A DNA stretch of 44,005 nucleotides from positions 1 to 44,005 of the IMG/VR virus record IMGVR_UViG_3300015050_000679. One strand, written 5' to 3'. The notes under the pieces are model-generated. The model had not been told where the DNA came from and made no database searches. It was given only the letters and a program-made list of their open reading frames with translations. Below, in pieces: positions 3,991 through 38,211 of the stretch (positions are counted from its first letter, which is position 1; each line of letters begins with the position of its first letter). A program made the translations under genes and the position numbers. The stretch comes from a virus (taxonomy: Duplodnaviria > Caudoviricetes).

Positions 3991-5175
3991 ATGTCCCAAG
4001 AAATTGAACAGCAGCTTACGGGCCTTCAGAAAGATCTGACTGGCTTCATCGGCAAGTACGAGGCCGAGCGCAAGGAATTTGGCACCGCCACCAGCGAAAC
4101 CAAGGGCCTCATCGAGAAGATTCAGCAGCGCATTGACTCGCTGGATCAAAAGATGGTCCAGTTGCCGACGCGGCACGAAACGAAGACCCTCGTGGAAGCG
4201 CTAAAGGAGTCCGATGACCTCCAGCGGCTTATCCGTGACGGCAAGAAGGGTAACGCCCACGTCAAACTGGACGGCGCCGCCGCCGATGAGCTTTTGAGCG
4301 GCAAATCCACGATCACTTCGTCCACCGTCGGTTTTCCGACGGCCGGTGTGATGCCCGAGGAGCGCGGCCGGTACGTGCAGGAAGCCCGCAAGCCGCTTCG
4401 CATGCGTGATGTCATCCCGGCCCGCGGCACAGTTCTTCAGCAGATCAGCTGGCCGAAGGCGAGCATCACTGGCACGAAGGCATCTCCGGTCGCTGAAGCC
4501 GCGGCGAAACCGTTGAACACCTACGACCCGGCCATGGTTACCGAGCGGGTTAAGACCATCGCCACCTACTTCGACGCTGGCCGCCAGGTTCTCGAGGACT
4601 GGACGGAACTGGAAGGAATCCTCCGCAGCCTCGGATCCTACAAGGTCAACGCGGAAGAGGACACGCAGATCCTCTTCGGCGCCAACACGGGCGAGAATTT
4701 CAACGGCCTCACCACTCAGGCGCAGGCGTGGAGCCTTTCCTATCTGACGGCTGGCGACGGCTACAAGTATTTCGACATCGTGGCCGGTGCCATCAATCAG
4801 ATCGCCGACGATGACGAACTGGACCCCTCATTTGTGGTCGTCCATCCGACCGACTGGTGGAAGATGCGGCGCACGAAGGACAGCACGGGCCAATACATCC
4901 TCGGCAACCCGCAGGAAATGGTCGCGCCGTCGCTGTGGGGCCTGAACGTCATTCCGACCACACAGATGACGCAGGGCTACTTCGTCGTCGGCAATGGCAC
5001 CGCCCAGGGCGCCGAACTTCGCGACCGCATGGGCGTTGAGGTCATGATCTCGACGGAGCACGCGAGCAACTTCACTAGCAACCTCGTCACGATCCGCATT
5101 GAAAAGCGGTCCTGCCTTTGCGTGTATCGCCCGAACGCTTACGTGTACGGCGCCTTCACGCAGTCTCCCGCGTAG
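3991..5175 (+). CDS. Major capsid protein, HK97 fold
   Basis: N-terminal coiled delta domain, VAE--KP, ED-QILFG, HPTDW, KDSTGQYI, LWGLNV, F-SNLV-IR-E-R; AAGGAG RBS. Confidence 0.95.
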   Translation: MSQEIEQQLTGLQKDLTGFIGKYEAERKEFGTATSETKGLIEKIQQRIDSLDQKMVQLPTRHETKTLVEALKESDDLQRLIRDGKKGNAHVKLDGAAADELLSGKSTITSSTVGFPTAGVMPEERGRYVQEARKPLRMRDVIPARGTVLQQISWPKASITGTKASPVAEAAAKPLNTYDPAMVTERVKTIATYFDAGRQVLEDWTELEGILRSLGSYKVNAEEDTQILFGANTGENFNGLTTQAQAWSLSYLTAGDGYKYFDIVAGAINQIADDDELDPSFVVVHPTDWWKMRRTKDSTGQYILGNPQEMVAPSLWGLNVIPTTQMTQGYFVVGNGTAQGAELRDRMGVEVMISTEHASNFTSNLVTIRIEKRSCLCVYRPNAYVYGAFTQSPA

Positions 5176-5192
5176 TTCTCTCTCCTGACAAT

Positions 5193-5218
5193 GGGGCGGC
5201 TCTTCCGCCCCTATTTTT
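5193..5218 (+). terminator. Rho-independent terminator after the capsid gene
   Basis: GGGGCGG-ctctt-CCGCCCC followed by TATTTTT. Confidence 0.75.
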
Positions 5219-5220
5219 CC

Positions 5221-6009
5221 ATGGAACTCATCGCACAAAAACCGATTTACCTCGGAGGCGGAAACCGCGTGCTACCCGGCGAGCGGTTTTCCGTCCCGAG
5301 CCCCGCAATCGCCAACGATTTCGTCAGTTCCGGCCGTGCGTCATTCGCCGCATACGCCGCGCCAGTATCTACCACGCAAGCCGGGCTGGTTTCATGCATC
5401 ATGCCGACGAAAAACCGGCGAGAGTTTATTCCGCGCGCCATCGCGTGCTTTCTGGCGCAGACCTATCCACTGAAAGAACTGGTCATCCTCGACAACGGCG
5501 AGCCAATCGCCGATTTAGTGCCGAAAGACGACCGAATCCGGTACATGCGACTTAATTCGATGCAGCCGACCGGGCAACTCCGCAACTTCTGCTGCCAGAT
5601 GGCAAAAGGCGAGTTTATCGCCCACTGGGACGATGACGATTGGAGCCATCCGCTAAGGCTGGAGGAGCAAGTCGCCGCCATCGGAGAAAAACAGGCTACG
5701 GGCTATAATTCTATCCTTTTCGACGGTCCGCAGAACGAAGTCTACGTCTATGCCGGCGCGAAGAATTACGCTCTTGGCACATCGCTCTTGTATCGCCGCT
5801 CCTGGTGGGAGCAATCAAAGTTCGCGGCCTTGAAGGTTGGCGAGGATAACGACTTCGTGAAAAAAGCCACGCCGTTTATGAGTTTCGCCGATGGTACCGG
5901 GCGAATCGTAGCGCGAACGCACGCTACAAACACCTCGCCCCGGCAAACAAAAACCGCTGAGTGGAAAAAGGCAAGCGCCAGCGCGCTGCCGGAAGGATAC
6001 ACCCGTTGA
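5221..6009 (+). CDS. Family 2 glycosyltransferase with an extra N-terminal ~45-aa domain
   Basis: SCIMPTKNR, LAQTYP-ELVILDNG, AHWDDDD (DxD), GED; ATG 5221 chosen because 5191 lies in the terminator. Confidence 0.9.
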   Translation: MELIAQKPIYLGGGNRVLPGERFSVPSPAIANDFVSSGRASFAAYAAPVSTTQAGLVSCIMPTKNRREFIPRAIACFLAQTYPLKELVILDNGEPIADLVPKDDRIRYMRLNSMQPTGQLRNFCCQMAKGEFIAHWDDDDWSHPLRLEEQVAAIGEKQATGYNSILFDGPQNEVYVYAGAKNYALGTSLLYRRSWWEQSKFAALKVGEDNDFVKKATPFMSFADGTGRIVARTHATNTSPRQTKTAEWKKASASALPEGYTR

Positions 6010-6731
6010 GCGTCTGGTTCTGCATCCCTTCGAAAAAGCCCGCCGCCGAGGCTCAAGAGTGCGTTGATATGTGGCGCGCGATGGGCTATTCCGTCGCCCT
6101 CTGGCGCGATATCGGCGATGACCTCGTGGACTGTGATTACATCCGCTATGGCGAGTATCCAGGCTACGCCAAGGCCGTCAACGCGCTGGCTAAAGACGTG
6201 CTGGCCTACGATACGGCGTGCGATTGGATCGTGACGGGCGGCGACGATACGGAACCGGACCAGAACAAGCGAGCGGATGTGATTGCGGCTGAGTGCTTGG
6301 AGTATTTCAACACGCACATCACGCTGCTAATTCACTCAATCACCATCAATGGTACATACGGCGTCATGCAGCCAACGGGCGACCGCTGGGGCGCAGAGCG
6401 CGGCGGGACAGCCTACATCGACCGGATCGCCGGCTCTCCGTGGCTCGGGCGCGAGTGGTGCCTGCGAGCGCACAAGGGCGCCGGGCCGATTCATCCAGAC
6501 TTTTTTCACATGTTCGAGGACGAATGCCTCCGCGGCGCGGCGGTATCGCAAGGCGTTTACTGGGAGCGCCAGGACCTCATCCACTACCATCGCCATTGGG
6601 CGCGCGAAAAAGGGCATGGAGGCGTGCCGTGGTACCTCAAGACCGCCAACGGCCAGAGCCACTGGAACGAGGCAAAGGCAATCTTTGAGCGCATCAAGCG
6701 CGGCGGGTTTGCGGAGTGCTTGCCAGCGTGA
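6006..6731 (+). CDS. GT-A-fold (GT2-like) glycosyltransferase
   Basis: CIPS, GYAKAVN, WIVTGGDD, FFHMFEDE, HxH; TTG overlaps the previous stop. Confidence 0.7.
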   Translation: MSVWFCIPSKKPAAEAQECVDMWRAMGYSVALWRDIGDDLVDCDYIRYGEYPGYAKAVNALAKDVLAYDTACDWIVTGGDDTEPDQNKRADVIAAECLEYFNTHITLLIHSITINGTYGVMQPTGDRWGAERGGTAYIDRIAGSPWLGREWCLRAHKGAGPIHPDFFHMFEDECLRGAAVSQGVYWERQDLIHYHRHWAREKGHGGVPWYLKTANGQSHWNEAKAIFERIKRGGFAECLPA

Positions 6732-7519
6732 ATATCCTCGCAACCTTCGGCGGAAGTGCCTACGACCGTAGCACCGCAAAGACCGTCGAGCGCGCGCCGC
6801 GCATGGGTGCCGACCGGGTTCTGGTCTACGACGACAAGTGGCTCACTGAACAGCCACTATGGCAAGATTCGAGATTTCAGTACCTCCTGAAGCACCGCGG
6901 CGTAGGTAATCGCAACGGCGGCCGCGGGCTGGGCTGGTTCGCATGGAAGCCCTATGTCATCGCCGACGCTCTGAACCGCTGCGACGATGGCGACGTCGTT
7001 CTCTACCTCGACGCGGACACCTACCCAATAGCCGATTTCCGCATGTTATTCGACATTTGCCGACGCGACGGCGGGCAGATGGCTTTCATGGCGACCGGCG
7101 CGACGCAAGCCCTCCGCAATGGCGACTGGAACAAGCGAGATTGTATGATTGCGATGGGGATGGATGAGCCGGAGTGGCTCGATAAAGGCACCGCCGTAGC
7201 CCGGTTCATGCTGTTTCAAAAGGGCGCGGCGGGAGTGGCTGAATTTATCGAGGAGTGGCAGGAGTGGTGCCTCGATCCGATTTGTCAGACATTTGAGCCG
7301 TCTGTGTTGGCGCCGGATCATCCCGGCTTCCGGGAGCATCGGACAGAGCAGGCGATTTACACCAACCTCGTCCACCGCAAGGGCCTGAAACTCTACCGCG
7401 AGCCGTGCGAGTTTGGCGCGAAGTGCCAACAGGACTGGGATTTGTACCCGCAACTGTTCAGTCAAGTGTATGAGGGTGGCGTGAAGTCGCTGAACGGGAG
7501 CCGATTCCGAAATGTATAG
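6728..7519 (+). CDS. Putative GT-A glycosyltransferase
   Basis: RG-GW--WKPYVI, GDVVLYLDAD, FREHR-EQ motifs; GTG overlaps the previous stop. Confidence 0.75.
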   Translation: MNILATFGGSAYDRSTAKTVERAPRMGADRVLVYDDKWLTEQPLWQDSRFQYLLKHRGVGNRNGGRGLGWFAWKPYVIADALNRCDDGDVVLYLDADTYPIADFRMLFDICRRDGGQMAFMATGATQALRNGDWNKRDCMIAMGMDEPEWLDKGTAVARFMLFQKGAAGVAEFIEEWQEWCLDPICQTFEPSVLAPDHPGFREHRTEQAIYTNLVHRKGLKLYREPCEFGAKCQQDWDLYPQLFSQVYEGGVKSLNGSRFRNV

Positions 7520-8087
7520 CCAACACGGCGAAGATGAGCTGATCCTCAAGCACGTACCCGCCACCGGGCGCTTTCTCGACATCGGCGCGTTCTGGCCGAA
7601 GGATCTCAGTAACACCCGCCTCCTCTACGAGCGCGGCTGGTCCGGCGTGATGATTGAGCCATCGCCAGGGCCGATGCGCCGGCTGATCGACGCCTACGGT
7701 TACGACGAACGGATCACGCTGGTTCAGGCACTCATCGGCTCCGCTAACGGGCTTCGGCGCTTCGAGGTAACCGACGACGCGGTAAGCACCGATAACGCCG
7801 CTGTGCGGGCGCTGTGGGCCACGGAAGGGCAATATGTGGGGGCTGTCTATGTCCCTATGTTGACGCTGCACGATCTTATCAACCAGTTCGGCGGATTCGA
7901 CTTTGTGAACATCGATGCCGAAGGCGGCAGCGTGGCGCTATTCGATAAGCTACTGGCGACGCCGATGGTTCCCCGGTGCATCTGCGTCGAGCATGACGGC
8001 GATGTGGTGGCCGTCGAGCGCATGGCGCGCAAAGCTGGCTATCAGGTGGCGATCAGCAACGAGACTAATACGGTGGTGTATCGGTGA
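7512..8087 (+). CDS. FkbM-family SAM-dependent methyltransferase
   Basis: YSQHGED, FLDIGA, SNT--L---GWSGVMIEP, DFVNIDAEG, ICVE. Confidence 0.92.
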   Translation: MYSQHGEDELILKHVPATGRFLDIGAFWPKDLSNTRLLYERGWSGVMIEPSPGPMRRLIDAYGYDERITLVQALIGSANGLRRFEVTDDAVSTDNAAVRALWATEGQYVGAVYVPMLTLHDLINQFGGFDFVNIDAEGGSVALFDKLLATPMVPRCICVEHDGDVVAVERMARKAGYQVAISNETNTVVYR

Positions 8088-8938
8088 ACCTGACCGCGAT
8101 CATGCCCGCCCGCAATGAGGGGTGGGTGATCGGCCTTACCGCCCGCGCGGTGCTGATGTGGTGCGATTCGTTGATCGTCCTAAACCACGCGAGTGATGAC
8201 GACACGGGCGACATAATCGACGCCATCTCCAATGAGCATCCCGGCCGAGTGTTTGAAATGCGCGAATCTTCGCCGGAATGGCGCGAGATGCACCACCGCC
8301 AGTCACTCCTCGAAGCTGCGCGGGCCATGGGTGCCACTCACATCGCCCCGGTAGACGCCGACGAACTACTCAGCGCCAACCTAATCGACGGAATCCGCGG
8401 GCAAATAGAACGACTGGTGCCAGGCCAATTTAACGGAATCCCGATGAAGAATCTGCACCGCTCCATCAACCAGTACCGGGCGGATAACAGCCCGTTCGGC
8501 TCGCAAGCTGGCACCATGCTTGCCTTTGCCGACGCGCCACACGTAGCGTGGAAGCCCACGAACGGTTACGACCACCACCAACGCTCGCCGCACGGCTCTA
8601 AGATGGGCCATATGATCCGGTGCGAGGGTGGGCTTCTGCATCTACAGTTTGCGTCATGGCGGCGGCTTTTGGCGAAACACGCGGCCTATAAATGCATGGA
8701 GCGAGTCAAGTATCCAGCAAAGTCGGTTCAGCAGATCGACCAAACCTACAGTCTCGCGCCGAACGAAGCAGGGCTACGGCTGGCCGACGTACCGGCATCA
8801 TGGCTAGACCGATACGCACCGCTGATACACCACTTAGATCTCGACCGGGAGCCCTGGCACACGGGCGAAGTTCGGCGGCTGGTCGGTGAGTATGGCCGCA
8901 GCTATTTCGAGCCAATGAACCTTTTCGGAGTCGCATGA
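8084..8938 (+). CDS. Family 2-like glycosyltransferase
   Basis: ARNE, D-LIVL-H-SDDDT, PVDADE, LLHL. Confidence 0.85.
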   Translation: MNLTAIMPARNEGWVIGLTARAVLMWCDSLIVLNHASDDDTGDIIDAISNEHPGRVFEMRESSPEWREMHHRQSLLEAARAMGATHIAPVDADELLSANLIDGIRGQIERLVPGQFNGIPMKNLHRSINQYRADNSPFGSQAGTMLAFADAPHVAWKPTNGYDHHQRSPHGSKMGHMIRCEGGLLHLQFASWRRLLAKHAAYKCMERVKYPAKSVQQIDQTYSLAPNEAGLRLADVPASWLDRYAPLIHHLDLDREPWHTGEVRRLVGEYGRSYFEPMNLFGVA

Positions 8939-9519
8939 ACGCACGCCTAAAACTTACGGTATCCTCGCCGGTCCAGACCTTCACGGAACCTCTGTCAGTG
9001 TCAGAGGCCAAGGAGTTCTGCGAAATCCCGGCCGCCGATACCACGCGGGACACGCTCATCGGCGCACTAATCACCGCCGCGCGTGAAGTCGCGGAACTAC
9101 GCCAAGGCCGTGATCTCGTCGGCAAGCAGTGGGACTTGACCGCCGACTGCTTCCCGTGCGGTGCCTTCCAACTTCGCGAAAACCTTTCTTCGGTCGATCT
9201 CCTCCGCTACCGGGATTCGAGCGGCAGCTATACGACATTGACCGAAAACACGGATTACATCGTCGATACCTCCGATTTCCTCGTTACCCCGCCCTACGGG
9301 GAGAGCTGGCCGACGTTCACGGCGTGGCCGACGAGCGCGGTTCTACTGCGCTATACCGTCGCCCCGCCCGCCGTGGATACCCAAGTGTTGCTTGGTATGC
9401 GCTTCCTGATCTCCCAGTGGTACGTTAACCGGGTGCCCGCGGAACTCGGGGCATCCAACGTCCAACAGTATCCGTTCGCGCTGGGCCTTTTAGACCATGG
9501 CCGCGTGGAGCGTGTGTGA
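8935..9519 (+). CDS. Head-tail connector (gp6-like adaptor)
   Basis: EPLSVSEAK, DTLI-ALI-AARE-AE, LISQWY-NR motifs. Confidence 0.9.
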   Translation: MNARLKLTVSSPVQTFTEPLSVSEAKEFCEIPAADTTRDTLIGALITAAREVAELRQGRDLVGKQWDLTADCFPCGAFQLRENLSSVDLLRYRDSSGSYTTLTENTDYIVDTSDFLVTPPYGESWPTFTAWPTSAVLLRYTVAPPAVDTQVLLGMRFLISQWYVNRVPAELGASNVQQYPFALGLLDHGRVERV

Positions 9520-9893
9520 TGTTTGGGCGGCAAAAAAGCAAGCACAACCCCGGCAAGTTCCGCTGCTCATTGACGCTGCGGGCCTCCACTGGAGCGCAGG
9601 GTGAAGGCGGCGATTTCCAGCCGGATTGGACATCCTCGCCCGCCATTGGTGTCGCCGTCCATGGCTGCTGGCGGCAAGCTACGCAACGCGAAAGCGTGAT
9701 GGACGGCGGCAAGTATTCCGGTGCCTCTGGCGTTTGGGAGGTGCCATGGGTGCCGAATATAACGACCGAGCACCGGGTGGAATTTGGCGCGCGGCTATAT
9801 CGAATTGTGGGCATTGAGAATCTGGACGAGCGAAACCGGGAGTTACATCTCTACTGCGTCGAAGATGAGGGCGCGCGTGGGGTGAACGGATGA
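9516..9893 (+). CDS. Head closure / head-tail adaptor
   Basis: PGK-R--LTL, RE, I--EHRV-F--R-Y-I--I-N-DERNREL-LYC. Confidence 0.88.
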   Translation: MMFGRQKSKHNPGKFRCSLTLRASTGAQGEGGDFQPDWTSSPAIGVAVHGCWRQATQRESVMDGGKYSGASGVWEVPWVPNITTEHRVEFGARLYRIVGIENLDERNRELHLYCVEDEGARGVNG

Positions 9894-10321
9894 GACTGCA
9901 AGAGTGCTTGGTTCGGCAACTTCAACTTTCAACCACCGCCACCTACGCAATCGTTGGCACGAAGGTCTTTTGGTCGATCACCGCCAAAGACCCTAACCCG
10001 CCGTTCGTCCGTATCCGCAAAGTCGGGCATCGCCCGCTAACGAATGGGCTTCAATCGCGGCGGCTGCCGGCGGAAATGGCAATTGAGGCCGTCGCCTACG
10101 CGAAGTCGCAAGAGGCCGCGGCGGACCTCGCCGACGCCATCGCAGCCGACCTCATCAACTACAACGGGCTGATGCCTTCAACTTCGCCAGCCACTTCCGG
10201 GGCGCTACACGTCAACGGCATTCAGCCGGGCAGCGAAGAAGACCTTGTGTCAGAAGAGGCCCTAGCCTTGAACATTTTTGCGGAATCGCGGGAGTATCTA
10301 GTCCGCTACCGCGAAGCATAA
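9890..10321 (+). CDS. Tail terminator / tail completion protein
   Basis: VGTKVF, PPFV, YAKS---A--LA-AI---L; position before the major tail gene. Confidence 0.7.
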   Translation: MRLQECLVRQLQLSTTATYAIVGTKVFWSITAKDPNPPFVRIRKVGHRPLTNGLQSRRLPAEMAIEAVAYAKSQEAAADLADAIAADLINYNGLMPSTSPATSGALHVNGIQPGSEEDLVSEEALALNIFAESREYLVRYREA

Positions 10322-10323
10322 TC

Positions 10324-10402
10324 GACCGTCGTGAGATGGGCGAAAACCGGGGACCGTCGTGAGATGGACTCCTAAGACCAATCAACTACTGCCGCGAGGC
10401 AG
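10324..10402 (+). repeat. Two 16-bp direct repeats plus a third hairpin, all GNRA-tetraloop stems, upstream of the major tail gene
   Basis: GACCGTCGTGAGATGG at 10324 and 10352; CTGCC-GCGA-GGCAG at 10389. Confidence 0.85.
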
Positions 10403-10413
10403 AAGGAGCAAAT

Positions 10414-10839
10414 ATGCCTTATTCCCCCTCTGCGGTCGCAGGTCGGGTACTTTCCGTTTCGGCTTCCTCGCCGATTTCCTACGCCGAGGTGCCCGGCATC
10501 GAAGCCCTTCAGTATTCTGGCGGTGCCAAAAACCGCATCAACGTGACGACCATTTCCGACGAAGCGGAAAAGAGCGTCCCTGGCCGTCGCGGATCCGCCA
10601 CCCTGGCCTTCAACCTGTTCTACGATCCGGCCTGGGCCACCCATCAATCGCTCCTCGCCAACTTCAACCTCGGCGACGGCACGCAGTTGGCCTTCCAGGA
10701 CGTGATGGACGACGCGGGCGACAAAACCCGCACCTTCACCGGCTACGTCGAACAGTGGGACGAAACGGCCGACCGTGACGGTGCCAACATGGTTTCGGTT
10801 GTGATCCGCGTTGACGGCGACTTCACCGACACCCCTTAA
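10414..10839 (+). CDS. Major tail (tube) protein
   Basis: INVTTISD, PG----TL-F-L-YDP, F-GYV, IRVDG pattern; AAGGAG RBS. Confidence 0.88.
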   Translation: MPYSPSAVAGRVLSVSASSPISYAEVPGIEALQYSGGAKNRINVTTISDEAEKSVPGRRGSATLAFNLFYDPAWATHQSLLANFNLGDGTQLAFQDVMDDAGDKTRTFTGYVEQWDETADRDGANMVSVVIRVDGDFTDTP

Positions 10840-10844
10840 TCTTT

Positions 10845-11249
10845 ATGCAAAACCCCATCAACCCTCCGCTGGTGGTGCCGTTCCAGGGCAAGACGTATAA
10901 CTGCGATCTTGTCCTGGCGGCACTGCCGCAAATCGAAGGCGAACTCAACATCGGCATCCTCTGCCCGACGGCGGATAGCCTATGGGCAAAACCGGAGTTC
11001 TTTCAACGGGCCGTGCTTCTGTACTGCTTGCTGAAATCCACGAAGATCCCCGGCCTCTCCCTTGCCCGCTGCTCTGCGGAAGTCGTCGGGCCGAACGCGC
11101 TACGGCTCGCCGAAATCATCAAGGAAGCCGCCGAACGGCTTCAACCGCAGGTCATGTCGCTGAATAACATGCTGCCGCCGCCTGACGCCAACGAACGCCC
11201 TACGGACGCTCAGAGTATTGGTCAAGACTCTGGGCAATCGGAAAGCTAG
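10845..11249 (+). CDS. Tail assembly chaperone (gpG-like)
   Basis: Position between tail tube and tape measure; followed by an overlapping -1 frame ORF. Confidence 0.7.
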   Translation: MQNPINPPLVVPFQGKTYNCDLVLAALPQIEGELNIGILCPTADSLWAKPEFFQRAVLLYCLLKSTKIPGLSLARCSAEVVGPNALRLAEIIKEAAERLQPQVMSLNNMLPPPDANERPTDAQSIGQDSGQSES

Positions 11250-11398
11250 TCCTTCACATCCCGGAGTCAGAGTTCTGGTCGCTGACTCCGGGCCAACTTG
11301 CCGACCTCATCGAGATTCATCGGCAAATCAACCACGTACCAGAGCCAAAAAAGGACACGCCAGATGGCCGCACGCCGCGCCGGAAAGTTCGCCGTTGA
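11186..11398 (+). CDS. Tail assembly chaperone extension (gpGT-like), -1 frame, probably reached by frameshift
   Basis: Open frame 11186-11398 without ATG encodes LWAIGKLVLHIPESEFWSLTPGQLADL, a typical gpT FW-LTP motif; not in the ORF track. Confidence 0.75.
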   Translation, partial: RQRTPYGRSEYWSRLWAIGKLVLHIPESEFWSLTPGQLADLIEIHRQINHVPEPKKDTPDGRTPRRKVRR

Positions 11399-11942
11399 AG
11401 CCCGAAACCTTCGGGAGTTAAAGGCGACCTTTCGCAGCGTGGCGGCTTCCGTTTCAGGCGAGCAAAACAGCGGACTTCTGAAATACGTAGGCATCGCCAT
11501 CCAGGACGCCTACGCCGCCGCCGCAAGGCTGATCCGTGATCGAGCGCGTTCTAACGCGGCCAGTGGTGGCGCGCCAAAACGGCTCTACTCCGGTGCCCGC
11601 CCTGCTATCTTCTCCTTCGCTGACTTCAAGGCCGGGAATACTGACAAGCGTAAACGGTCGTCTCTAGTCGGCGTCCGCACTGGACTATCTACGCGGTCGC
11701 GCGACCCGAATTTGTTCGTGCAGTGGCACCCGAAATCGGGCCAGCGGCGCGACGGCTCACGGCTGCAAAGCGGCGGCCTCTCGATGTCCCTCGCCGCCCT
11801 TTTTGAGCGTGGCACAAAAGACCGGCGCATCCGGCCGCTCCGCTATTTCCGCTCGGCCATCTTCGCCACGCGGGGCCAAGTCATCGGCATGTTGACCCGC
11901 GCCTATCAGGCGGCGGGCGCAAAGATCAACTCCCTTAAATAA
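11364..11942 (+). CDS. HK97 gp10-like tail completion protein
   Basis: NLREL---F N-terminus, AARLIRDRAR, FERGT----P--YFR-A; ATG 11364. Confidence 0.65.
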   Translation: MAARRAGKFAVEARNLRELKATFRSVAASVSGEQNSGLLKYVGIAIQDAYAAAARLIRDRARSNAASGGAPKRLYSGARPAIFSFADFKAGNTDKRKRSSLVGVRTGLSTRSRDPNLFVQWHPKSGQRRDGSRLQSGGLSMSLAALFERGTKDRRIRPLRYFRSAIFATRGQVIGMLTRAYQAAGAKINSLK

Positions 11943-14873
11943 ATGTCATCCCTCGTATTCCGCATTACCGGCGATCCAGCCTCCTTTAAGGCGGCTATGG
12001 GCGAGGTGTCGGGTTCGCTCGATGCCGCGGGCCGCAAAGCTACACTCGTCTCTGACGTGTTCGGGCGCATGGGCTCCGCAATGACGCTCGGGATTACCGT
12101 CCCTGCCGTTGCGGCGGGAGCCGCGGTCATCAAAGCCGCTGCGGACATGGACAGCCTGAAGCGCGGACTCACTGCCGTAGCTGGCTCCAGCGAGGAAGCG
12201 CAGAAACAACTCGTCCGGCTGAAGGAAGTAGCCAAGCTGCCCGGATTGGGCTTTAAAGAGGCCATCCAGGGCTCGATCAGCCTCCAAGCAGCCGGGTTCT
12301 CCGCGCAACTCGCCGAGCGCAGCCTGAAGGCATTTGGCAACGCGCTCGCCACCGTCGGCAAGGGGAAGGCCGACCTCGATGGCGTAGGGCTAGCGCTGTC
12401 TCAGATTGCCTCGAAAGGCAAGATTAGCGCCGAAGAAATCAACCAGCTAGCCGAGCGGGTACCGCAAATCCGCGCCGCGATGAAGGCGGCTTTCGGCACA
12501 GCCGATACTGAGGTACTGCAAAAGGCTGGCATCGGCGCGCAGGAGTTTACTGAGAAGGTCGTGCGCGAGCTGGAAAAGCTCCCGCAGGTGACTGGCGGCG
12601 TTAAAAACGCCATGGAAAACCTGTCGGACGCGGTGAATCAAAGCGCCGTGCGCATCGGCGAAAAGCTACTGCCGACGGTCGAGGCTGTTCTACCGAAACT
12701 GGAGAGCATGGTCGGCGTAGCGGCTGATCTGGTTGACGGTTTCGTTAAACTGCCCGGCCCAGTGCAAAACACGGCGCTGGCAATCGGCGGGCTGTTACTG
12801 GTCGCTGGCCCTGCATCGAAGGCCATTGCACTTATCACGGAGTCGCTCGTAGCTGCGCGGGCGGCCTATCTGGCGTTCGCTGCCGTCTCCGGTTCCGGCG
12901 CTGCGGTAACCGCTCTATCTGCCTCGGCAGCATGGGCTGCGAAAAATGCCGTGGCGATGCGCGGAATTGTAGCTGTTGCGCCGAGCCTAGCATCCGGCCT
13001 AACGGCAGTCGGAGCCGCCGCTGGCGTTGCTGGAGGTGCCGCTGCTGGCGTGCTGGTTTACGGCTTGAACAACTCCGCCTCCGCCATGCGTGAGCAAAAG
13101 AAAGCGGCTGACGAATCAGCTGCAAGCCTGCGCCGCATCAATGATCGCTTCTATGAGAACGCCCCGGCGACAAAGGGAGGGTATGAAGCGCTCGTAGGTT
13201 TCACGCGCTCTCTCGCTGACTCCAAAAAGCCAGCGGAAGAACATGCGATCAACCTGAATAAAATCGGCATCGCGTCCGCCTCGATGGCTAACGTCATCAA
13301 GGTGACCTCCGTCGCCATGCGTGACGCCAACGGCGAACTCTCGAAAACCTCTTTAGTCTACGTCGAGATGCTGGAGCGGACGAAGGCCGCGCTGGGCAAG
13401 GTTAAGGACGTGATGTACGAATACATCACCGCCGGCACCCTCATTGGCAAAACCATCGACACCCACCCGGCTATTCTCGACGCAGCCACACTGGGCGCGC
13501 AGGAGTACGTGGCGCAGCTCGGCAACATCCGGCGCGAGCTGGAGAACATGCCCGCGCCGCGCGTCGAAACCGTCAATGGCGGCAACCTCCGCCGCGGCTC
13601 AGTCTTCGAGACGGATGACATTCTCGGATCGTCATCCTCGCGAAATCAGGCGCAGCGCGTGGCGCAAGCCGAAGCCGATCTCGCGCGCATCAAACAACTC
13701 AACGCCGAAGGCAAAGCCACCGGCAACGACGTTATCACCGCGCAGCAAAACCTGAAGAAAGCACTGGAAGAAACCGGGCGCGCGGCCACCACCAGCGGGG
13801 CCCGGCAAGTAGGCGCGTTGCGGCAGGTATCCACGATCCTAACCGACCTCTCGCGCGGCATCGCCAACGCGGGCGTCGGCCTGCTATTCGACCGCCCGAA
13901 GGTGGACGCGCAGGCGTTCCGCGACGAGATTAAAGGACTGGAGGCCGACATTGAACGCTTGACTTCCGCGCAAGGGCAGATGAGCGAAGAGACGGCACGG
14001 CTCAAGGACGAGGAGTCGAAGCTCCTGGCCGCTCAGGTTAAAGGGCACAACGTCACGGCACAGCTAGCCGTGGTTCGTGCGAAGATCGTGGAGTCCGAAA
14101 AGAAAGGCACTGAGGCGCTGACCGAGGCGCAGAAGAAACTGGCCGACGCCAACAAGCGCATGGCCGAGGAACTGCATAAGGCATCCTTCGGCTTCCGCGC
14201 TTTGGAGGCCGGCAAGGCGATTATCGAGGACTTGGCTAAGTCGATTGTGCGGACGCTGATTGAAGGCGCGCTCAAGGATCTAAGCAAAAGCCTGCTCGAT
14301 GTCGGAGGTTTATTTGGGAAGGTCTTTAGCGGTGGTACTGGAGTAATAAAGTCTGCCGTGCCGGGCGTTACGGCCGTTGGCTTAGAGAATGGCGGACTCG
14401 GCAATCTACCGGGGCTAGGGGGAGCGGGAGCATCGGTCGGCTCGTCGGCCGCAAGCGGTGTTGCTGGTATCGTTGGCGCTGTCGGCTCGGTCGTCTCCGC
14501 GATTTCCGGCGTTGTTTCGAACTTCCAGTTCGCACACATGAACACCGCACTAGGCCGCATTGAGGAATCCACGCGGTACCTGAAAATCTACACAGGGGAG
14601 CAATCGCAAAGCCTGCTGTGGTGCGCGCAAAAATCCACGGAATACCTCGGCTACATCAGCGCCAGCTCCGACACCATCGGTCGCCTGAACTCCGAGATGC
14701 TCGCCCATCTCCAGCGCATCACAGGGGCCGGGATGGTCGCGCCAGCGGCCTCCACTGGCGGCGATATGTACGTCTCCATGGAAGGCGCGTACTTGATTTC
14801 CGATTATCAGATGGGCGACTTTGCCGACCGGCTTATCCGCCTTCTGAAATCGCGCGGGGTGCAGTTCGCATAA
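11943..14873 (+). CDS. Tape measure protein
   Basis: 976 aa Ala/Gly-rich helical; LSQIASKGKISAEEINQLAER tape-measure motif. Confidence 0.95.
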   Translation: MSSLVFRITGDPASFKAAMGEVSGSLDAAGRKATLVSDVFGRMGSAMTLGITVPAVAAGAAVIKAAADMDSLKRGLTAVAGSSEEAQKQLVRLKEVAKLPGLGFKEAIQGSISLQAAGFSAQLAERSLKAFGNALATVGKGKADLDGVGLALSQIASKGKISAEEINQLAERVPQIRAAMKAAFGTADTEVLQKAGIGAQEFTEKVVRELEKLPQVTGGVKNAMENLSDAVNQSAVRIGEKLLPTVEAVLPKLESMVGVAADLVDGFVKLPGPVQNTALAIGGLLLVAGPASKAIALITESLVAARAAYLAFAAVSGSGAAVTALSASAAWAAKNAVAMRGIVAVAPSLASGLTAVGAAAGVAGGAAAGVLVYGLNNSASAMREQKKAADESAASLRRINDRFYENAPATKGGYEALVGFTRSLADSKKPAEEHAINLNKIGIASASMANVIKVTSVAMRDANGELSKTSLVYVEMLERTKAALGKVKDVMYEYITAGTLIGKTIDTHPAILDAATLGAQEYVAQLGNIRRELENMPAPRVETVNGGNLRRGSVFETDDILGSSSSRNQAQRVAQAEADLARIKQLNAEGKATGNDVITAQQNLKKALEETGRAATTSGARQVGALRQVSTILTDLSRGIANAGVGLLFDRPKVDAQAFRDEIKGLEADIERLTSAQGQMSEETARLKDEESKLLAAQVKGHNVTAQLAVVRAKIVESEKKGTEALTEAQKKLADANKRMAEELHKASFGFRALEAGKAIIEDLAKSIVRTLIEGALKDLSKSLLDVGGLFGKVFSGGTGVIKSAVPGVTAVGLENGGLGNLPGLGGAGASVGSSAASGVAGIVGAVGSVVSAISGVVSNFQFAHMNTALGRIEESTRYLKIYTGEQSQSLLWCAQKSTEYLGYISASSDTIGRLNSEMLAHLQRITGAGMVAPAASTGGDMYVSMEGAYLISDYQMGDFADRLIRLLKSRGVQFA

Positions 14874-16600
14874 TGGGAATTTCAGTCCTCGTACTCTCGA
14901 CGCTGGCGAACGATAAAACCAAGCCAGCGACGATCTCGATTAACAAGCGCCTCGGGCAACCGGCGACAGCGGAGGTGTCTACTGTTGACAGGGCAGGCAC
15001 CTTCTTTCCCTACGTCGGGAACAAAGTCGAGATTCTGGACCAGAATGCAGACCCGATATTTTTCGGCAACGCGAACGAAGTCGAGCGTATCCGCCCCGGC
15101 CATTATGCTTGCGATGTAAGCGAGTCGCGGACCTCCTGCACCGACCTGAACTTTGCCCTCACGCGGCGCCTTGCCGGTGAGTATGAGTGGATCGGGAAGA
15201 CGCTCTTGGAGATCGTTACAGACATCGTAGCGAACAGTCTGGCTGGCGATCTGACCGATATCACGCTTGTTGAAACCGGCCCAGTCCTACCTAACTTCCT
15301 CATCAGCTACCCAACCGTCGCCGGGGCCTTCGATGCTCTCAAAAAAGAGACGGGCATGGAATGGCACGTTGACGACCAAAACCGACTGAACTTCTTTACA
15401 CCGGGCGCGATGGCGTGCCCTTGGTCTATTGTGGACGGTTCCAACCTGGAGCGCATCGTCATCCGCGAGACGCGCGAAGACTACTGCAATTGGGCCGTGG
15501 CGCGCGTCCTAAAAGCGTTACGCGAGCCCGCCACCGAAGAGTTTGTAGGCGACGGCGCGCTGACAAGTTTTGAACTTGCGTACCCCTGCGCGCAGGCACC
15601 GACGATCTTTCTTAATGGCGTAGAAAACACCGTCGGCATCACCACCGTTGACACGGGCAAAGATTGGTACTGGTCGCCGGAATCTAAGGAGATTCGGCAG
15701 GACGACCTAGGCGTAGTGCTGACCAGCGCGGACACGCTGGCGGTCACCTACGTGGGCCAGGAGCAGATATATGTCGAGTCGCAGAACGCAGGCGAAATCG
15801 CCGCGCGCGCCGCGGCCGAAGACAACAGCGGCATCTATCAGCGGCTCATCGAGATTGAGGCGGAATCGACCCGCGCCGACGCACAAGCCATCGTAGACGC
15901 CTACGTTGCCGCGCATGACTCGTTTTCGCTCGTCGCCACAATCGAGACGAACGACCACATCGAGCCGCTTGTGCTGGGAACGCAAGTAGGGCAGACCATT
16001 GACATTGGAATTAACGGCTACGGCGCGCTGGGCGAGTTTTTGATAACGGACATCAACATCCTCCACTGGGACGTGAACGATCAAGCGGCAGCGCAGTGGA
16101 AATACACGATCACTGCCGTTAAAGGGCCGAAGCTGAAGAACTTCGTGGAAGCGTTCGGCGACCTAATCGGAAGCGGTCAGAGCGGCGCGAGCAAGCAGCC
16201 TGTAGCCGCCACAGAGCGCCGGCCAATTCAGCGCACGCTGCTCCTGAAAGATACCGCCGTCGGCAACGACATCGCCGATCATACGACCGTCTACGCGGGC
16301 GGCACTGGGCGCCGTATGACGGGCGTTCTCCGCACTGCTATCGCGGCCGATTTGACCGTGCGCGTCAAGAAGTATACCGTAGCCTCTCCGGTGGTCGCCG
16401 CCTCGACCATCATCACACTGACGATTCCGGCGAGCACGCCCGTGAATACGCCGATCACACAAACCACCTTTACGGATGACCCCCAGCAGTTTTACGATGG
16501 GGACGTTCTGATTTGGGATGTGACGGCCAGCGACGGCTCCGTGGACGCCGCGGGCGTCGCTTCATTCACTCTGGAGTGGACGAATGTCCCTGGCGTTTAG
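14873..16600 (+). CDS. Minor tail / baseplate hub protein
   Basis: Follows TMP (TAATG overlap); W-VD----L-F hub-like segment, F-GDG---F-L repeat. Confidence 0.7.
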   Translation: MGISVLVLSTLANDKTKPATISINKRLGQPATAEVSTVDRAGTFFPYVGNKVEILDQNADPIFFGNANEVERIRPGHYACDVSESRTSCTDLNFALTRRLAGEYEWIGKTLLEIVTDIVANSLAGDLTDITLVETGPVLPNFLISYPTVAGAFDALKKETGMEWHVDDQNRLNFFTPGAMACPWSIVDGSNLERIVIRETREDYCNWAVARVLKALREPATEEFVGDGALTSFELAYPCAQAPTIFLNGVENTVGITTVDTGKDWYWSPESKEIRQDDLGVVLTSADTLAVTYVGQEQIYVESQNAGEIAARAAAEDNSGIYQRLIEIEAESTRADAQAIVDAYVAAHDSFSLVATIETNDHIEPLVLGTQVGQTIDIGINGYGALGEFLITDINILHWDVNDQAAAQWKYTITAVKGPKLKNFVEAFGDLIGSGQSGASKQPVAATERRPIQRTLLLKDTAVGNDIADHTTVYAGGTGRRMTGVLRTAIAADLTVRVKKYTVASPVVAASTIITLTIPASTPVNTPITQTTFTDDPQQFYDGDVLIWDVTASDGSVDAAGVASFTLEWTNVPGV

Positions 16601-17528
16601 TGATCTACCGATTGCACAGGGCACCATCTCTGCCGACCCGGCGACATTCCTGGACGACCTGCACATCCTGCTTACCTCCGCTGGATGGACCTCGGCCACC
16701 TACGATAACGGCCACTTATACGCCTGCGTATCTCCGCAGGGCCTCGCCGCTCAGGTACGCATCTGGTACCCCGACGACCCAGACTTTGACAACTGCTTCG
16801 CTTTTCAGTGGATCACTTCAACCTCCCCGATCTCCGAGGGCCTAATCCACCACCTACGCTCCGACGCCGCCCGCACCTACTCGATATGGGCCAACTGCTG
16901 CTCTCTTTTCATCGGCCGCCCGGGTGTGACCCACGCGGACCTTGTGCCGTGGAGCGTTTGCGGCGGCATCCCCTACACCTACGGCCTCGTGGCGCCAACC
17001 GATCAATGCGCCGCGCAATCCCCGGCGCCACCCGATACCACCACAGAACTCTGGTTCTCCGCTGGCTCTGATTCCGGCGTGGCTGGCTTTGCCGCGGCTA
17101 CCGTATTCAGCTTCCGCGACAGCAGCTACTGCGCGCGGTTCAGCTTTTCGCGCAACTCGGTAGTCTCCAACGTCACCAGTGCCATCGAGTCGGACGCGCT
17201 GCAACTGGGCGTGCTGGCACCATCTGGCTACCTCAACAACCGCCGCCCATCCGGCTTCGAGTCGGGCCTTCTGTTTGTGGACGGCACGCCGCTTGCTACG
17301 GACCCGATTATCAGCGTCGCTGGCATCTGGTACGGGCAACTCTACGACGCCTGCCTCATCTCTAAACCGATGTCACTGGAAGCCACGGAAACAATTTTCG
17401 AGAGTGCCGTGCCACGGACAACCGACTGGATAAACTATCTGGACGCAAGCGAGCACAACGGCCTAATCTCCAGCCTTTTACTTCTCACCGGCACCAGCAG
17501 TGGGAGAGTTTGCAACATTGCTCACTGA
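16584..17528 (+). CDS. Minor tail protein (paralog-like to next gene)
   Basis: S/T/G-rich; L--AGWT and G-LYD shared with the next gene. Confidence 0.55.
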   Translation: MSLAFSDLPIAQGTISADPATFLDDLHILLTSAGWTSATYDNGHLYACVSPQGLAAQVRIWYPDDPDFDNCFAFQWITSTSPISEGLIHHLRSDAARTYSIWANCCSLFIGRPGVTHADLVPWSVCGGIPYTYGLVAPTDQCAAQSPAPPDTTTELWFSAGSDSGVAGFAAATVFSFRDSSYCARFSFSRNSVVSNVTSAIESDALQLGVLAPSGYLNNRRPSGFESGLLFVDGTPLATDPIISVAGIWYGQLYDACLISKPMSLEATETIFESAVPRTTDWINYLDASEHNGLISSLLLLTGTSSGRVCNIAH

Positions 17529-18828
17529 CCCCTTCTACATCCCCGGTGCCGAGTACAGCGGCACCTCAACCGGCATCCAATCGCTGGCCTACGGATCGTC
17601 CTACGTGGCCGCTGGCCTCGCGCTCGTCGGGCTGCTTCAAGACGCCGGGTGGACCATCGTAGACAGCGCGCCAAGCTCGGGAAAGGCCACTCGGCCCGCC
17701 TTCTATTTCCAGACTGTCAGCGGCACCGGGACGCCGGTTGACATGACGCCAGCCCAATGTACATCGCTAGCTGGCGCGCCATGGCGGCGGGCGAGCGCGG
17801 GCGGCGTGACCTACAACTCCTACGATCCAGGCCAATACACTCCGGTTTGCCCTGGTGGCACGAACGGTATCGGCTGGTTCGCGGCAGATACAACCACACT
17901 GGGCACGGCTACCAGCCTTGCGGACAAGATCACGGAATCGCCCGTTTGGGATTGCGCTGTGACGGCCACTATCGGCGACCCATCGGCGGGCGGCTCGTAT
18001 GAGTTTACATTTACGTCAGAGGCACCAGCGTTTGAGTTCGACGAACTGCTTTTACTCGACGGAACCGGCGTCATGCTTCGCGGGTATTACACGCTGCGAT
18101 CACCGACACTCGATGGTGCCTATTTGGAGTGCAAAATTGAAACGCGTCGGGTCAATAATTCCGGCTCGTTCTTCTCATACGACGGGCTAGGCACGCCACG
18201 CCTGTGCATCACGATAACGGCGTCCGGCGGTGGCACGTACTATATGCCATTCATGCCAGGCTCCTACAACTTCTGCGGCAATAATCACCAGTTCGCCATC
18301 TGGCCGAAGGTGGGGCAGACTATCGGCAGAAACTTCAACACCGCGCTATTCGTGAGCCTCATCGAAGCCCCAACGGCACACGCCACGGGCGGCAGTTGCC
18401 CGGTGGTGATTGGCTCGAATAACGGCGACCTGAACATCTACCCCGACCACCTCCGAACGCAGCTCCACTGGTCGCAATCGCTAGCCTCCGGGCAGGCCGC
18501 GGTCATGGATGACACCGCGTACCGCAAGGGCACCTGCGACGGCTACCAGACCGTGCCGGTCCTCGTCCGAGGGACTAAGACCCGCCAGACGACATCACTC
18601 TCGGGCCAGCCGCTTATACAGGCTCCCTACATCGCCCTGCCAGCCAATCCGACCAGCGGACCTGAGGCGGAAATCGTCGGCAAACTCTGGGACATCGTGA
18701 CAACCAGCGGCAACGCCGGACTAGGGGCCATGATGCTCAATGACGGCAAGCGATGGACGTGTTTCTCGACGACAACGCCAGCGGGCGACGTTGGCTGCGA
18801 TATGTGGATTTTAACGGACCCGAGCTAA
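17500..18828 (+). CDS. Minor tail protein
   Basis: S/T/G-rich; LQDAGWT, GKLWD; true start may be TTG 17518. Confidence 0.55.
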   Translation: MGEFATLLTDPFYIPGAEYSGTSTGIQSLAYGSSYVAAGLALVGLLQDAGWTIVDSAPSSGKATRPAFYFQTVSGTGTPVDMTPAQCTSLAGAPWRRASAGGVTYNSYDPGQYTPVCPGGTNGIGWFAADTTTLGTATSLADKITESPVWDCAVTATIGDPSAGGSYEFTFTSEAPAFEFDELLLLDGTGVMLRGYYTLRSPTLDGAYLECKIETRRVNNSGSFFSYDGLGTPRLCITITASGGGTYYMPFMPGSYNFCGNNHQFAIWPKVGQTIGRNFNTALFVSLIEAPTAHATGGSCPVVIGSNNGDLNIYPDHLRTQLHWSQSLASGQAAVMDDTAYRKGTCDGYQTVPVLVRGTKTRQTTSLSGQPLIQAPYIALPANPTSGPEAEIVGKLWDIVTTSGNAGLGAMMLNDGKRWTCFSTTTPAGDVGCDMWILTDPS

Positions 18829-34861: not shown

Positions 34862-35193
34862 CCTGGACAAGAGCGCACGACGCACACATTGCGCGGGAGT
34901 GCGAGGGGTTGGATGTGCGGCCAGCGGGAGATATTGGCGATTGGTGGGTGTGGTCGCTAGACCTCCCTAATCACCCGTGCAATCACTACCTCACCGACCC
35001 CGCCGCCTGCATCCGCGCGGCTGAGGCGTGGCGAAAGAAGGGTAAACTTCGCATCGTTCGGCTGTCGCTGCATAGCCGAGGGTGTTCTGCTAGGCTGTAC
35101 GACGGTCTGAATTGGATTAACGAAGGGCCGCACTCAGACCCCGCCGCCGCGCTCGCCCAAGCCCTGCTGAGAGCCACCGGCGGCCCGGAATGA
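34858..35193 (+). CDS. Phage ABA-sandwich-like protein, copy 1
   Basis: WTRAHDAHIARECEG, HY-TDPAA, ALA-ALLRA. Confidence 0.6.
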   Translation: MTWTRAHDAHIARECEGLDVRPAGDIGDWWVWSLDLPNHPCNHYLTDPAACIRAAEAWRKKGKLRIVRLSLHSRGCSARLYDGLNWINEGPHSDPAAALAQALLRATGGPE

Positions 35194-35333
35194 TCCACCG
35201 CATCCGAATGGCCCGCAAGCGGCTGGGGATTGCGCGGGAGCGGCTGTACCGGGCTATCAAAAGACGACGCAATTTAGTTGACGCAGTGCGTAGCTACCGC
35301 GCCATCGAGCGAAGAAAGGATCGGGTTACATAA
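35190..35333 (+). CDS. Small basic protein, copy 2
   Basis: RIRMARKR-GIA ... RAIERRKDR. Confidence 0.55.
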   Translation: MIHRIRMARKRLGIARERLYRAIKRRRNLVDAVRSYRAIERRKDRVT

Positions 35334-37578: not shown

Positions 37579-37586
37579 AATTCTAA
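36162..37586 (+). CDS. C5-cytosine DNA methyltransferase, catalytic polypeptide (motifs I-VIII and X)
   Basis: SLFAGAG, GGFPC-DLS-AG, ENV, HRRDR, RVDRLRA-GNGVV. Confidence 0.9.
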   Translation: MAEITTISLFAGAGMLDLAVDIAIGGTCTLVRVEREIPAAGILAARVEDGSLAGEAIWSDVRTFNGRSFNGRVDGIIGGFPCTDLSVAGRQAGLDGDASGLFFEYVRIIREVQPRWVFVENVPPVLAFPTGGTVLGELAALGFDAEWGTVRASDVGAPHRRDRAFILAFRPGLAVYAPGAASVPNPSAGGVEQAVLGANGAARAGERHRSDSGFDAMAHAGLQHVELQQRGVWHESPGGIDELAHAPQRGLGELREPSGRGGVADGGDSAVGNAECTRWAEAGSGRAFDAGRGLKPGRCDMDHPASPRCGGRKPGEGWQVWDEARRGEPCGRCDAMEGPRCPERRAHDERGERGDGQGEAAGWAGEPGAVCGLADAECLRRDQGQPTQPPGSVSDAQRGSGLPLFPPGPGDAEAWRRILAERPDLAPAVEPELRGLADVAAPRVDRLRAGGNGVVVLQGAYAFRVLAERAALKF

Positions 37587-37629: not shown

Positions 37630-38211
37630 ATGGGAAGACCCAAAAAACCGTGGATCGACGGGACGCCGTGCAAGAACTGCCGGAAGCCGTTGACATCAGA
37701 CGAGCGTTACAAGCAGGCCGGCCGATTGTGTCGGGACTGCGGAAACGCAACAAGACAGGCGCAGCGAGACGCGCTACGGGCACAGTCGCCGATGCCGTGC
37801 CGGGCTTGCGGGAAGCCGATGACGGACGGGCGCGAGAAGCGGTTCGGCCGATGCGCGGCCTGTAAGGCGGCGAACGCGGGAAACTGCGCTTGCGGCGCTC
37901 CGGTCCATATCGGCAAGCGCTGCGTTGACTGCTATCGAATCGAGAAGGCGGACGCGCAATCACTGCGAAGGAATCGACCGGCGCGACTGTGTAAATGCGG
38001 GGCGCGGATCGGCGACGGCGCGACGAAGTGCCGGCGCTGCAACATGGCGTCGGTTGGCACGGCAACGACCGAGCGGCGGGCGGTGGCACCGGAACCGGTG
38101 GCGCGGCTTGTGGCGCAAGCGTGGCCGGGATTGCGCGGGCCTGGTGGGGAGTGGGAGAAGGGGCCGACGACCGTGCAGGGCTGGGCGACGTTGGACGGGG
38201 GGCGGTTGTGA
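37630..38211 (+). CDS. Multi-CxxC zinc-finger protein
   Basis: Repeated CxxC/CxC pairs; GAGGAG RBS. Confidence 0.65.
   Translation: MGRPKKPWIDGTPCKNCRKPLTSDERYKQAGRLCRDCGNATRQAQRDALRAQSPMPCRACGKPMTDGREKRFGRCAACKAANAGNCACGAPVHIGKRCVDCYRIEKADAQSLRRNRPARLCKCGARIGDGATKCRRCNMASVGTATTERRAVAPEPVARLVAQAWPGLRGPGGEWEKGPTTVQGWATLDGGRL

Follow-up and report, generated by a model that had tools for sequence, protein, structure and literature searches.

Ser-Pro dipeptides in the virion proteins of an HK97-type phage as candidate acceptor sites for phage-encoded O-glycosylation

Virion genes, inserted cassette and Ser-Pro sites

The DNA analyzed here, called the window throughout, is the whole of a 44,005-nucleotide (44 kb) stretch from IMG/VR virus record IMGVR_UViG_3300015050_000679, and it belongs to an HK97-type long-tailed phage. 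Its virion module runs in the order terminase, portal, protease, major capsid protein, connector, head closure, tail terminator, tail tube, chaperone, tape measure, hub and distal tail genes, with a five-gene cassette inserted at 5191–8938 between the capsid gene (3991–5175) and the connector gene; the features of this module located below all lie on the plus strand. We examined the Ser-Pro (SP) dipeptides of the virion proteins and their relation to this cassette, which is predicted to encode glycosyltransferases (GTs). An earlier note on this DNA had proposed S-P-[A/V/I] as a phage-specific glycosylation sequon, acquired in exposed virion proteins as the acceptor site for the adjacent cassette and avoided elsewhere. 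Every motif that it named was found in its place in the window, and the window's tape measure, portal, protease and chaperone contain no SP, the portal reading GIGAI as claimed.

The phage encodes glycosyltransferases of its own, GT2a and GT2b being recognized by Pfam, as is an FkbM enzyme, GTc by its fold, and GTd as a lead only. The cassette opens with a small post-capsid domain (5221–5382; the likely start is 5221, homologues beginning M[EQK]LIA) fused in frame to GT2a (5383–6009), a GT-A family 2 glycosyltransferase domain and the candidate priming enzyme. GT2a matches PF00535 (E 3e-18) and contains an acidic motif, DDDD (D83–D86), that is invariant in 44 sequences; the profile match and this DxD-type motif place it, by sequence, in the GT2 (GT-A) family. 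GTc (6006–6731) is a predicted GT-A fold glycosyltransferase with an invariant GDD motif, its AlphaFold model (pLDDT 85) matching GT-A enzymes in Foldseek (best E 4e-6). GTd (6728–7519) is a probable glycosyltransferase that has a D-A motif and no Pfam or NCBIfam match, and its nearest named Atlas clusters are GT34 and TOD1/MUCI70 (score 0.94–0.95); sequence searches of the PDB with GTc and GTd gave nothing useful. The FkbM-type methyltransferase (7512–8087; PF05050, E 4e-8) is probably a sugar O-methyltransferase, and GT2b (8084–8938; PF13704, E 4e-7) ends the cassette.

The major capsid protein (394 residues) matches PF05065 and phrog_10, and its best Foldseek matches are the capsids of D3 and HK97. 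When capsid homologues were aligned to these two, the cross-link residues K173 and N364 were nearly invariant and the catalytic E371 was invariant; by its fold and by this Lys, Asn and Glu, the window capsid is an HK97-type cross-linked capsid. Two candidate acceptors are found in it. Ser165-Pro166 (ASPV; 4483–4488) lies in the E-loop immediately before the cross-linking lysine, where D3 has A-P and HK97 has A-D, and Ser392-Pro393 (QSPA; 5164–5169) lies in a C-terminal tail that reaches past the point where either solved chain stops. The predicted model shows coil at both sites (pLDDT about 63 at the E-loop site), and both are invariant in 64 of 64 aligned homologues, out of 73 gathered, nine having been left out as near-duplicates, fragments or very distant; the four most distant homologues have the terminal SP only in P0070. 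One further locus, L033, has a cassette and neck genes like those of L003 and L108 together with a capsid 34% identical to that of the window that retains both SP sites, and is a probable capsid swap.

E-loops are described as exterior in the D3 structure paper (PMC12749128). The E-loop of the cassette-less L025–L027 capsids holds an inserted domain of about 65 residues, and long inserts occupy the tail-tube loop of the cassette-less L039, L320, L323 and L328. Because whole protein domains are inserted there in cassette-less relatives, the SP-bearing loops are probably exposed. The exposed placement claimed by the earlier note is supported by the coil positions of the two capsid sites, whereas for tube and connector it is read from alignments and insertions only. 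The domains inserted at SP loops (capsids of L025–L027, L264, L265 and L269; tubes of L039, L320, L323 and L328) are rich in Thr, Gly and Ala, and look as if protein decoration had replaced a glycan.

The remaining sites follow the order of the genes. The connector (8935–9519) carries SSPV near its N terminus (8965–8970). In the head-closure protein (9519–9893), SSPA (9636–9641) lies in a short local insertion, which the alignment of relatives shows to be common to the window and L104 and absent from L102, L108, L003, L110 and L109; the site is present, but conservation fails, as just 6 of 28 closure proteins of phages with GT2a have it. The tail terminator (9890–10321) has TSPA (10184–10189) in a loop that alignment shows to be specific to a subclade, TSP[AVP] occurring in 9/9 listed terminators of the window's subclade and mostly PDPD in other members of the clade. 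The tail tube (10414–10839) has SSPI (10468–10473) in its first beta-hairpin loop and a second dipeptide, YSPS (10423–10428), common to the window and L104 only. In closure and terminator alike, the site is a short insertion found in the window's subclade.

In the hub (14873–16600), ASPV (16385–16390) and WSPE (15674–15679) are both kept in the closest relative, G001, and four further relatives have SP at other positions. The 16584 protein, found in one of five related genomes, has three SP within 16731–17024 (at 16731, 16824 and 17019; TSPI, QSPA and VSPQ are among them), all of which recur, as SPQ, SPN and SPA, in the 60%-identical G001 orthologue. Two of the proposed sites did not hold up. 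ESPV of the 17500 protein (17938–17943) is probably due to chance: it is missing from the only orthologue, in G001, which retains RSPT and has SGSPA elsewhere, and the viral contigs searched gave no relatives of this protein. PSPA, at 5299 in the N-terminal domain of what the note called GT1, is missing from the homologous N-terminal domains compared. TerL also carries MSPA. A DNA-level repeat as source of the motif was ruled out, the serine codons differing (TCT, TCG, TCC, TCA, AGC) and no listed repeat family covering the sites.

Association of Ser-Pro with the cassette

Enrichment in the window was assessed with 2000 shuffles per protein set. The eight proteins of the original proposal contain 10 copies of the three-residue motif SP[AVI] against 2.0 expected, a count reached in 0 of 2000 shuffles; the motif remains over-represented when five further tail proteins are added (10 against 2.7, P = 0.001) and among all 20 module proteins (11 against 3.8, P = 0.001). 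Plain SP, in contrast, is not significantly enriched in the window alone (14 against 9.2, P = 0.07). All eight of the originally proposed proteins have at least one SP (P = 0.015), and seven internal or non-virion proteins together have 1 against 5.3 expected (P = 0.023). Because both the motif and the protein set were chosen after the data had been seen, enrichment within the window is suggestive only.

Homologues gave a different definition of the motif. We collected the residue following SP at 256 sites in capsid, connector, closure, terminator and tube proteins of phages with GT2a, and found V 59, A 58, Q 22, I 19, L 15, T 15 and P 14 times, with the chain ending there 13 times. This variation rules out SP[AVI] as the motif, the conserved signal being Ser-Pro itself; the residue after the proline would represent a loose preference for small or aliphatic side chains outside the signal proper. 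In the same five proteins, SP ranks first of 384 dipeptides by over-representation in phages with the GT2a cassette (256 against 124.7 expected). It also ranks first of 316 (46 against 20.6) in an unrelated class, here f9, in which a small gene of family f27 precedes a GT of family f9 annotated as sialyltransferase-like, and it ranks 201 of 371 in the cassette-less class. Note that these counts pool related proteins, which share ancestry and are not independent. Capsids show no such excess of TP, AP or PS. A short motif enriched in the target proteins and tied to an enzyme, as is expected of a sequon, is therefore seen in the counts but not in significance after correction for kinship. These data indicate a real, cassette-linked signal that is broader than a single phage and simpler than the motif first described: it is a trait of a whole clade, and it recurs with the unrelated sialyltransferase-like cassette.

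The link to the cassette was examined across loci gathered by capsid-based scans, a GT2a scan, a scan for the loss lineage described below, a scan with a single tube query and an f9 scan. Genes were called with a simple caller that mis-split some of them (e.g. in L029), and cassettes were detected by six-frame profile searches, which would miss unfamiliar GT families (L320 has two unassigned genes). The capsid set comprised 134 dereplicated loci of 230 selected for a GT no more than 10 kb away or for a readable run from capsid to tube. SP was present at the E-loop or C terminus of the capsid in 73/73 loci with GT2a (65 of them having both), 29/48 with f9, 0/12 without a cassette and 0/1 with another GT only. 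The N-terminal connector site (124 dereplicated loci of 196) was present in 41/48, 6/58 and 0/16 of the GT2a, f9 and cassette-less loci, respectively, with SP somewhere in the connector in 51/58 of the f9 class. The tube-loop site (92 dereplicated of 165) was present in 36/37, 25/34 and 3/21 (Fisher p 9e-10, uncorrected for kinship), and the sole GT2a miss, L029, is a truncated gene call.

In cassette-less homologues the proline usually stays and is preceded by Ala, Thr, Asp, Asn or Val. At most sites the proline is ancestral, the serine alone being new. Distant capsids accompanied by a GT2a cassette have an E-loop insertion with one SP (L190) or three (L208), and the f27-f9 lineage has a separate E-loop insertion of its own that carries SP. 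Two apparent exceptions to the association were resolved: loci of the L058 type have their cassette further downstream, as seen in L230, and the Thermobifida phage P1312 has a methyltransferase and a glycosyl/glycerophosphate transferase elsewhere in its genome. Related tubes were found in six cultured phages, of which TvV S20, which has a cassette, and P1312 carry SP; SBP33, Shpa, Dubu and Rivra lack the tube-loop SP, and no cassette is annotated in the module fetched for them. Just upstream of isolated SP-bearing tube genes in L301 (6034–8877) and L321 (6993–8505) are genes like those of diversity-generating retroelements (RT, Avd, Lcl_C).

A lineage nested inside the GT2a clade provides the reverse comparison. 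L252, L264, L024 and L251 form a clade (SH-aLRT 100) without GT2a, and L253, L265, L269, L026, L039 and L149 are further members that lack it. In L251, L252, L253, L264 and L269 a small gene stands alone between capsid and connector, with no GT recognized in the fetched range. No complete capsid of the lineage retains the C-terminal SP. At the E-loop site SM, TM or SV is found, L025/L026 alone keeping SP; the connector site, kept in L026/L039, has otherwise decayed in three ways (TDP or ADP, ATP, and DTP), and only L251 still has the tube site. On the contigs of L264, L265 and L269, none of these proteins retains SP. The serine has often been changed to Thr or Asp. The association claimed by the earlier note is thus supported in that cassette-less homologues mostly lack SP and the loss lineage lost most of its sites, but the independent instances are too few to reach significance.

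Avoidance of the motif in internal proteins did not extend beyond the window. SP occurs 35 times in tape measures against 35.0 expected and 42 times in portals against 42.0, which rules out general avoidance; it is low only in the protease (16 against 31.7) and at one portal site. At this site G-x-S-P is absent from 31/31 GT2a, 7/7 f27-f9 and 13/22 cassette-less portals, and another SP is present in 21/31 portals of the GT2a class. G-x-S-P is kept in the GT2a loci L190, L208 and L250, and in the loss lineage it was regained only in L024, so that its absence follows descent.

The post-capsid domain and the first glycosyltransferase

In the capsid-first set, GT2a is found in every locus of the SP clade that has any cassette enzyme, except L024. 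Other cassette members vary among relatives and include epimerases, aminotransferases and several methyltransferases. Variable members beside a constant GT2a would fit a glycan that differs between relatives but is attached by one unchanging step. Cultured phages gave no close relative of GT2a. Related capsids lie in Acidobacteriota genomes, L084 (Ca. Sulfopaludibacter) having the full cassette, and one homologue is named Bryobacteraceae.

The post-capsid domain matches f27 by HMM-HMM comparison (hhalign, probability 95.8), and one member of f27 matches DUF7210 weakly. Its relation to GT2a takes two forms: an in-frame fusion in 12 distinct loci, including the window (5221–6009), and an overlap in the +1 frame in 79 (for example L018:11879–12680 and L084:5686–6490). 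TTT followed by C or T stands at the frame change in 77 of the 79 split loci, mostly as CCN-TTT-CGT, TTT making up 24% of Phe codons; the next codon in the +1 frame is not a start in 32/77 and is GTG in 45/77. A +1 programmed frameshift is therefore likely to join the post-capsid domain to GT2a in the split relatives. The sequence UUU_Ynn is described as prone to +1 shifting in bacteria (PMC5009743), and the TTT-Y junction, mostly CCN-TTT-CGT, is like the UCC_UUU_CGU site of influenza PA-X (PMC3498833); the difference is that here the shift would join a head-module domain to a glycosyltransferase, and that the window itself is fused in frame. In f27/f17-f9 loci, the first GT is read in the -1 frame relative to the small gene, and its domain has no ATG ahead of it (33/33); the junctions are mostly A_AAA_AAG, A_AAA_AAA or C_CCA_AAG; examples are L162, L052, L038 and phage D3 (L418:5691–6409, with CCCAAAG at 5837). 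The frameshifts are putative, as is capsid binding by the post-capsid domain. A priming enzyme shared by the GT2a and f9 cassettes was ruled out, no pair of GTs reaching a probability of 70 by hhalign.

Other features of the window lie apart from the cassette. A TET-associated glycosyltransferase (40528–41397; PF20691, E 5e-43), a C5 cytosine methylase (36162–37586) and an N6/N4 methylase (38208–38822) represent a possible DNA modification system, separate from the virion cassette. Direct and inverted repeats resembling origin iterons lie within the replication initiator gene (41707–41913), two related segments (34863–35199 and 38978–39323; 76–90% identity) are about 4.1 kb apart, and a 29-nt motif occurs three times just upstream of genes (36131, 37599 and 40229). 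The 21176–21763 gene encodes a protein with N-terminal [YF]FA[PA]RY[FW] repeats; this protein has no Pfam or PHROG match and is kept in G001. In L412 (9371), L414 (10312) and L415 (7516; positions on the read strand), large proteins encoded behind the lysis region have several SP, with GSPIT repeated, and are possibly further virion proteins.

Ser-Pro as a candidate acceptor, alternatives and known systems

We consider it likely that Ser-Pro in exposed loops and termini of capsid, connector and tail tube is an acceptor sequon for phage-encoded O-glycosylation, probably begun by GT2a. Late in infection, cytoplasmic GT2a would use a host nucleotide-sugar to place the first sugar on a serine that precedes proline, with the post-capsid domain bringing the enzyme to assembling heads and the amount of enzyme being set by the in-frame fusion in the window or by a +1 frameshift in most relatives. 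GTc, GTd and GT2b would then extend the chain and the FkbM enzyme methylate it, and the varied sugar-synthesis genes of relatives would alter the glycan. Sites could arise cheaply, either where Ser replaces the Ala, Thr, Asp or Asn that precedes a turn proline already in place, or where the chain gains a short insertion or is extended at its C terminus, and hundreds of glycans may coat head and tail as a shield or an adhesive layer. More tentatively, and with rather less than even confidence, we propose that tailed phages use a general proline-directed O-glycosylation code, in which Ser-Pro is read independently by two unrelated enzymes, a GT2 and a Maf/sialyltransferase-like GT, both held at the head through a domain fused to them by frameshifting.

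Several observations weigh against the proposed role of Ser-Pro. Kinship inflates every co-occurrence count. When independent pairs were taken from the capsid tree, GT2a versus none gave only 2, both in agreement and not significant, and any GT gave 3, with 0.5 in agreement and 2.5 showing no difference; the tube tree gave 4 starred pairs, on average 2.2 in agreement, 0.0 in disagreement and 1.8 without difference. None of the sign tests on either tree was significant, the pairs being too few. Part of the GT2a and f9 sets also came from searches whose queries were those same enzymes or a tube that itself carries SP, and cassette-less loci are few. SP is missing from 19/48 f9 capsids and 9/34 f9 tubes, the D3 capsid lacking both sites; L243 has GT2a and a capsid without SP; the N-terminal site is missing from 7/48 GT2a connectors; and in L159, L173 and L169 the E-loop SP is present although their short or atypical contigs show no GT. 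Sites were retained despite cassette loss in the E-loop of L025/L026, the connector of L026/L039 and the tube of L251. Five further tail proteins of the window are without SP[AVI], and the tape-measure counts given above show no avoidance. Eight satellite-like elements, in which capsid is followed by protease (L001/L017, L019, L083, L085, L086, L099, L119 and L137), keep both capsid sites without a cassette; some have a tape measure and several lie in Acidobacteriota genomes. A helper's enzymes would explain their sites, as a conjecture. The best solved relatives of GT2a are polysaccharide synthases (heparosan and chondroitin), a likeness by which GT2a could be an extender, and, with no recognizable GT in common, the two cassettes could share one signal only through separate priming enzymes or a host step.

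These last points bear on an alternative in which modification of the serine is begun not by GT2a but by a host enzyme or a different gene of the cassette, the first group (sugar, phosphate or phospho-sugar) then being only extended or capped by the phage GTs. It would account for the same SP signal beside two cassettes without a common GT, for the likeness of GT2a to chain-extending enzymes and the sialyltransferase-like annotation of f9, and for enzyme-less satellites that keep their sites. We nevertheless think it improbable. L024 retains a different two-domain GT, yet it has lost GT2a and the sites; GT2a is the sole member present throughout the cassettes of the clade; and no kinase or phosphotransferase was recognized in the cassette of the window. 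General bacterial O-oligosaccharyltransferases act in the periplasm, whereas virions are assembled in the cytoplasm.

A second alternative is that Ser-Pro is no more than a favored turn or N-cap pair inherited by descent, with cassette and clade simply going together and the cassette modifying something else, such as the host surface. The ancestral proline, the other turn pairs (TP, DP, NP and AP) carried by cassette-less homologues, the small number of independent transitions, the sites kept by satellites and the GSPE conserved in terminators of cassette-less phages as well are all compatible with this. Against it, four sites in three genes decayed by differing substitutions in a single loss lineage. 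Newly gained insertions and C-terminal extensions also bring SP with them, as many as three in tandem, and the dipeptide recurs in unrelated cassette-bearing capsid lineages. Thr would suit a turn equally, yet tube loops of the GT2a class have SP 37 times and TP once, and the first GT is fused to the post-capsid domain. We accordingly give this explanation little credence. That the Ser-Pro loops are docking marks for the post-capsid domain or a GT, with the sugar on a neighboring Ser or Thr, is very improbable. T, S, A and G do abound at positions -1 to -3, which are often Thr or Ser, and Ser/Thr runs, for example TSSPA and STSPA, surround many sites. Yet it is the serine next to the proline that is invariant, its neighbors varying freely, and in KASPV, GASPE and GNSPE, among others, no hydroxyl residue is adjacent.

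If the general code proposed above exists, it would cover capsid, neck and tail of a large and widespread group of soil and aquatic phages and supply a portable bacterial O-glycosylation tag of two residues that works in the cytoplasm. If Ser-Pro is the acceptor, the trait would extend to phages of Acidobacteriota and to the cultured TvV S20 and D3, glycosylated phages would become predictable from sequence, and a soluble, cytoplasmic, tag-directed tool would be at hand. A two-residue internal signal common to capsid, connector and tube, with natural gains and losses and a candidate primer, makes the proposal testable in the laboratory with four or five genes.

Virion glycosylation by phage enzymes has a precedent in mycobacteriophages. 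The acceptor in glycosylation of the Che8/Corndog type is reportedly the chain-terminal serine. The virion O-glycosylation of Che8, Corndog and Myrna is said to be the subject of Freeman et al. 2023, Cell Host Microbe 31:1216. Capsids and tubes of Che8 and Corndog end in G-S or D-S, and the Che8 capsid is without any SP; the window capsid ends in S-P-A and its tube in D-T-P, neither having a terminal serine. Phage-encoded GTs are described as modifying capsid and tail tube in Che8, Corndog and Myrna (PMC11600133, PMC12363180, PMC11256854, PMC13445384, PMC10877033), with O-linkage reported, and in cluster O mycobacteriophages three GTs lie behind an O-methyltransferase and modify the same two proteins (PMC11600133). 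The window resembles these systems in having GTs and a probable O-methyltransferase predicted to target capsid and tube. It differs in that its sites are mostly in internal loops, involve at least three to five proteins and are defined by a proline. Corndog genes 35–38 had no match to the cassette profiles built here at E 0.01. Judged by the predicted acceptor, the Ser-Pro system is not the same as mycobacteriophage virion glycosylation.

Listeria GmaR is a cytoplasmic GT2 protein O-glycosyltransferase that acts on flagellin. GT2a is like GmaR and other such enzymes in its GT2 fold, but the match to GmaR is weak (E 1.4e-4) and polysaccharide synthases score higher; we know of no Ser-Pro signal for GmaR. 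The D3 orf6.5-orf7 cassette and those with an 'alpha-2,3-sialyltransferase' (MptE/Maf-like), including that of Tetraselmis viridis virus S20, occupy the same post-capsid position, share the layout in which the first GT overlaps a small post-capsid gene, and in many members are accompanied by SP in E-loop insertions or tube loops. They differ in a non-homologous first enzyme, in a putative -1 rather than +1 frameshift, and in a weaker link to SP (29/48 capsids). No mention of 'glycosyl' was found in the available text of the D3 structure paper (PMC12749128), and the literature searched, mostly open-access papers and abstracts, yielded no acceptor sequon for phage virion glycosylation, Ser-Pro included. 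Phage virion glycosylation itself is known from a few mycobacteriophages.

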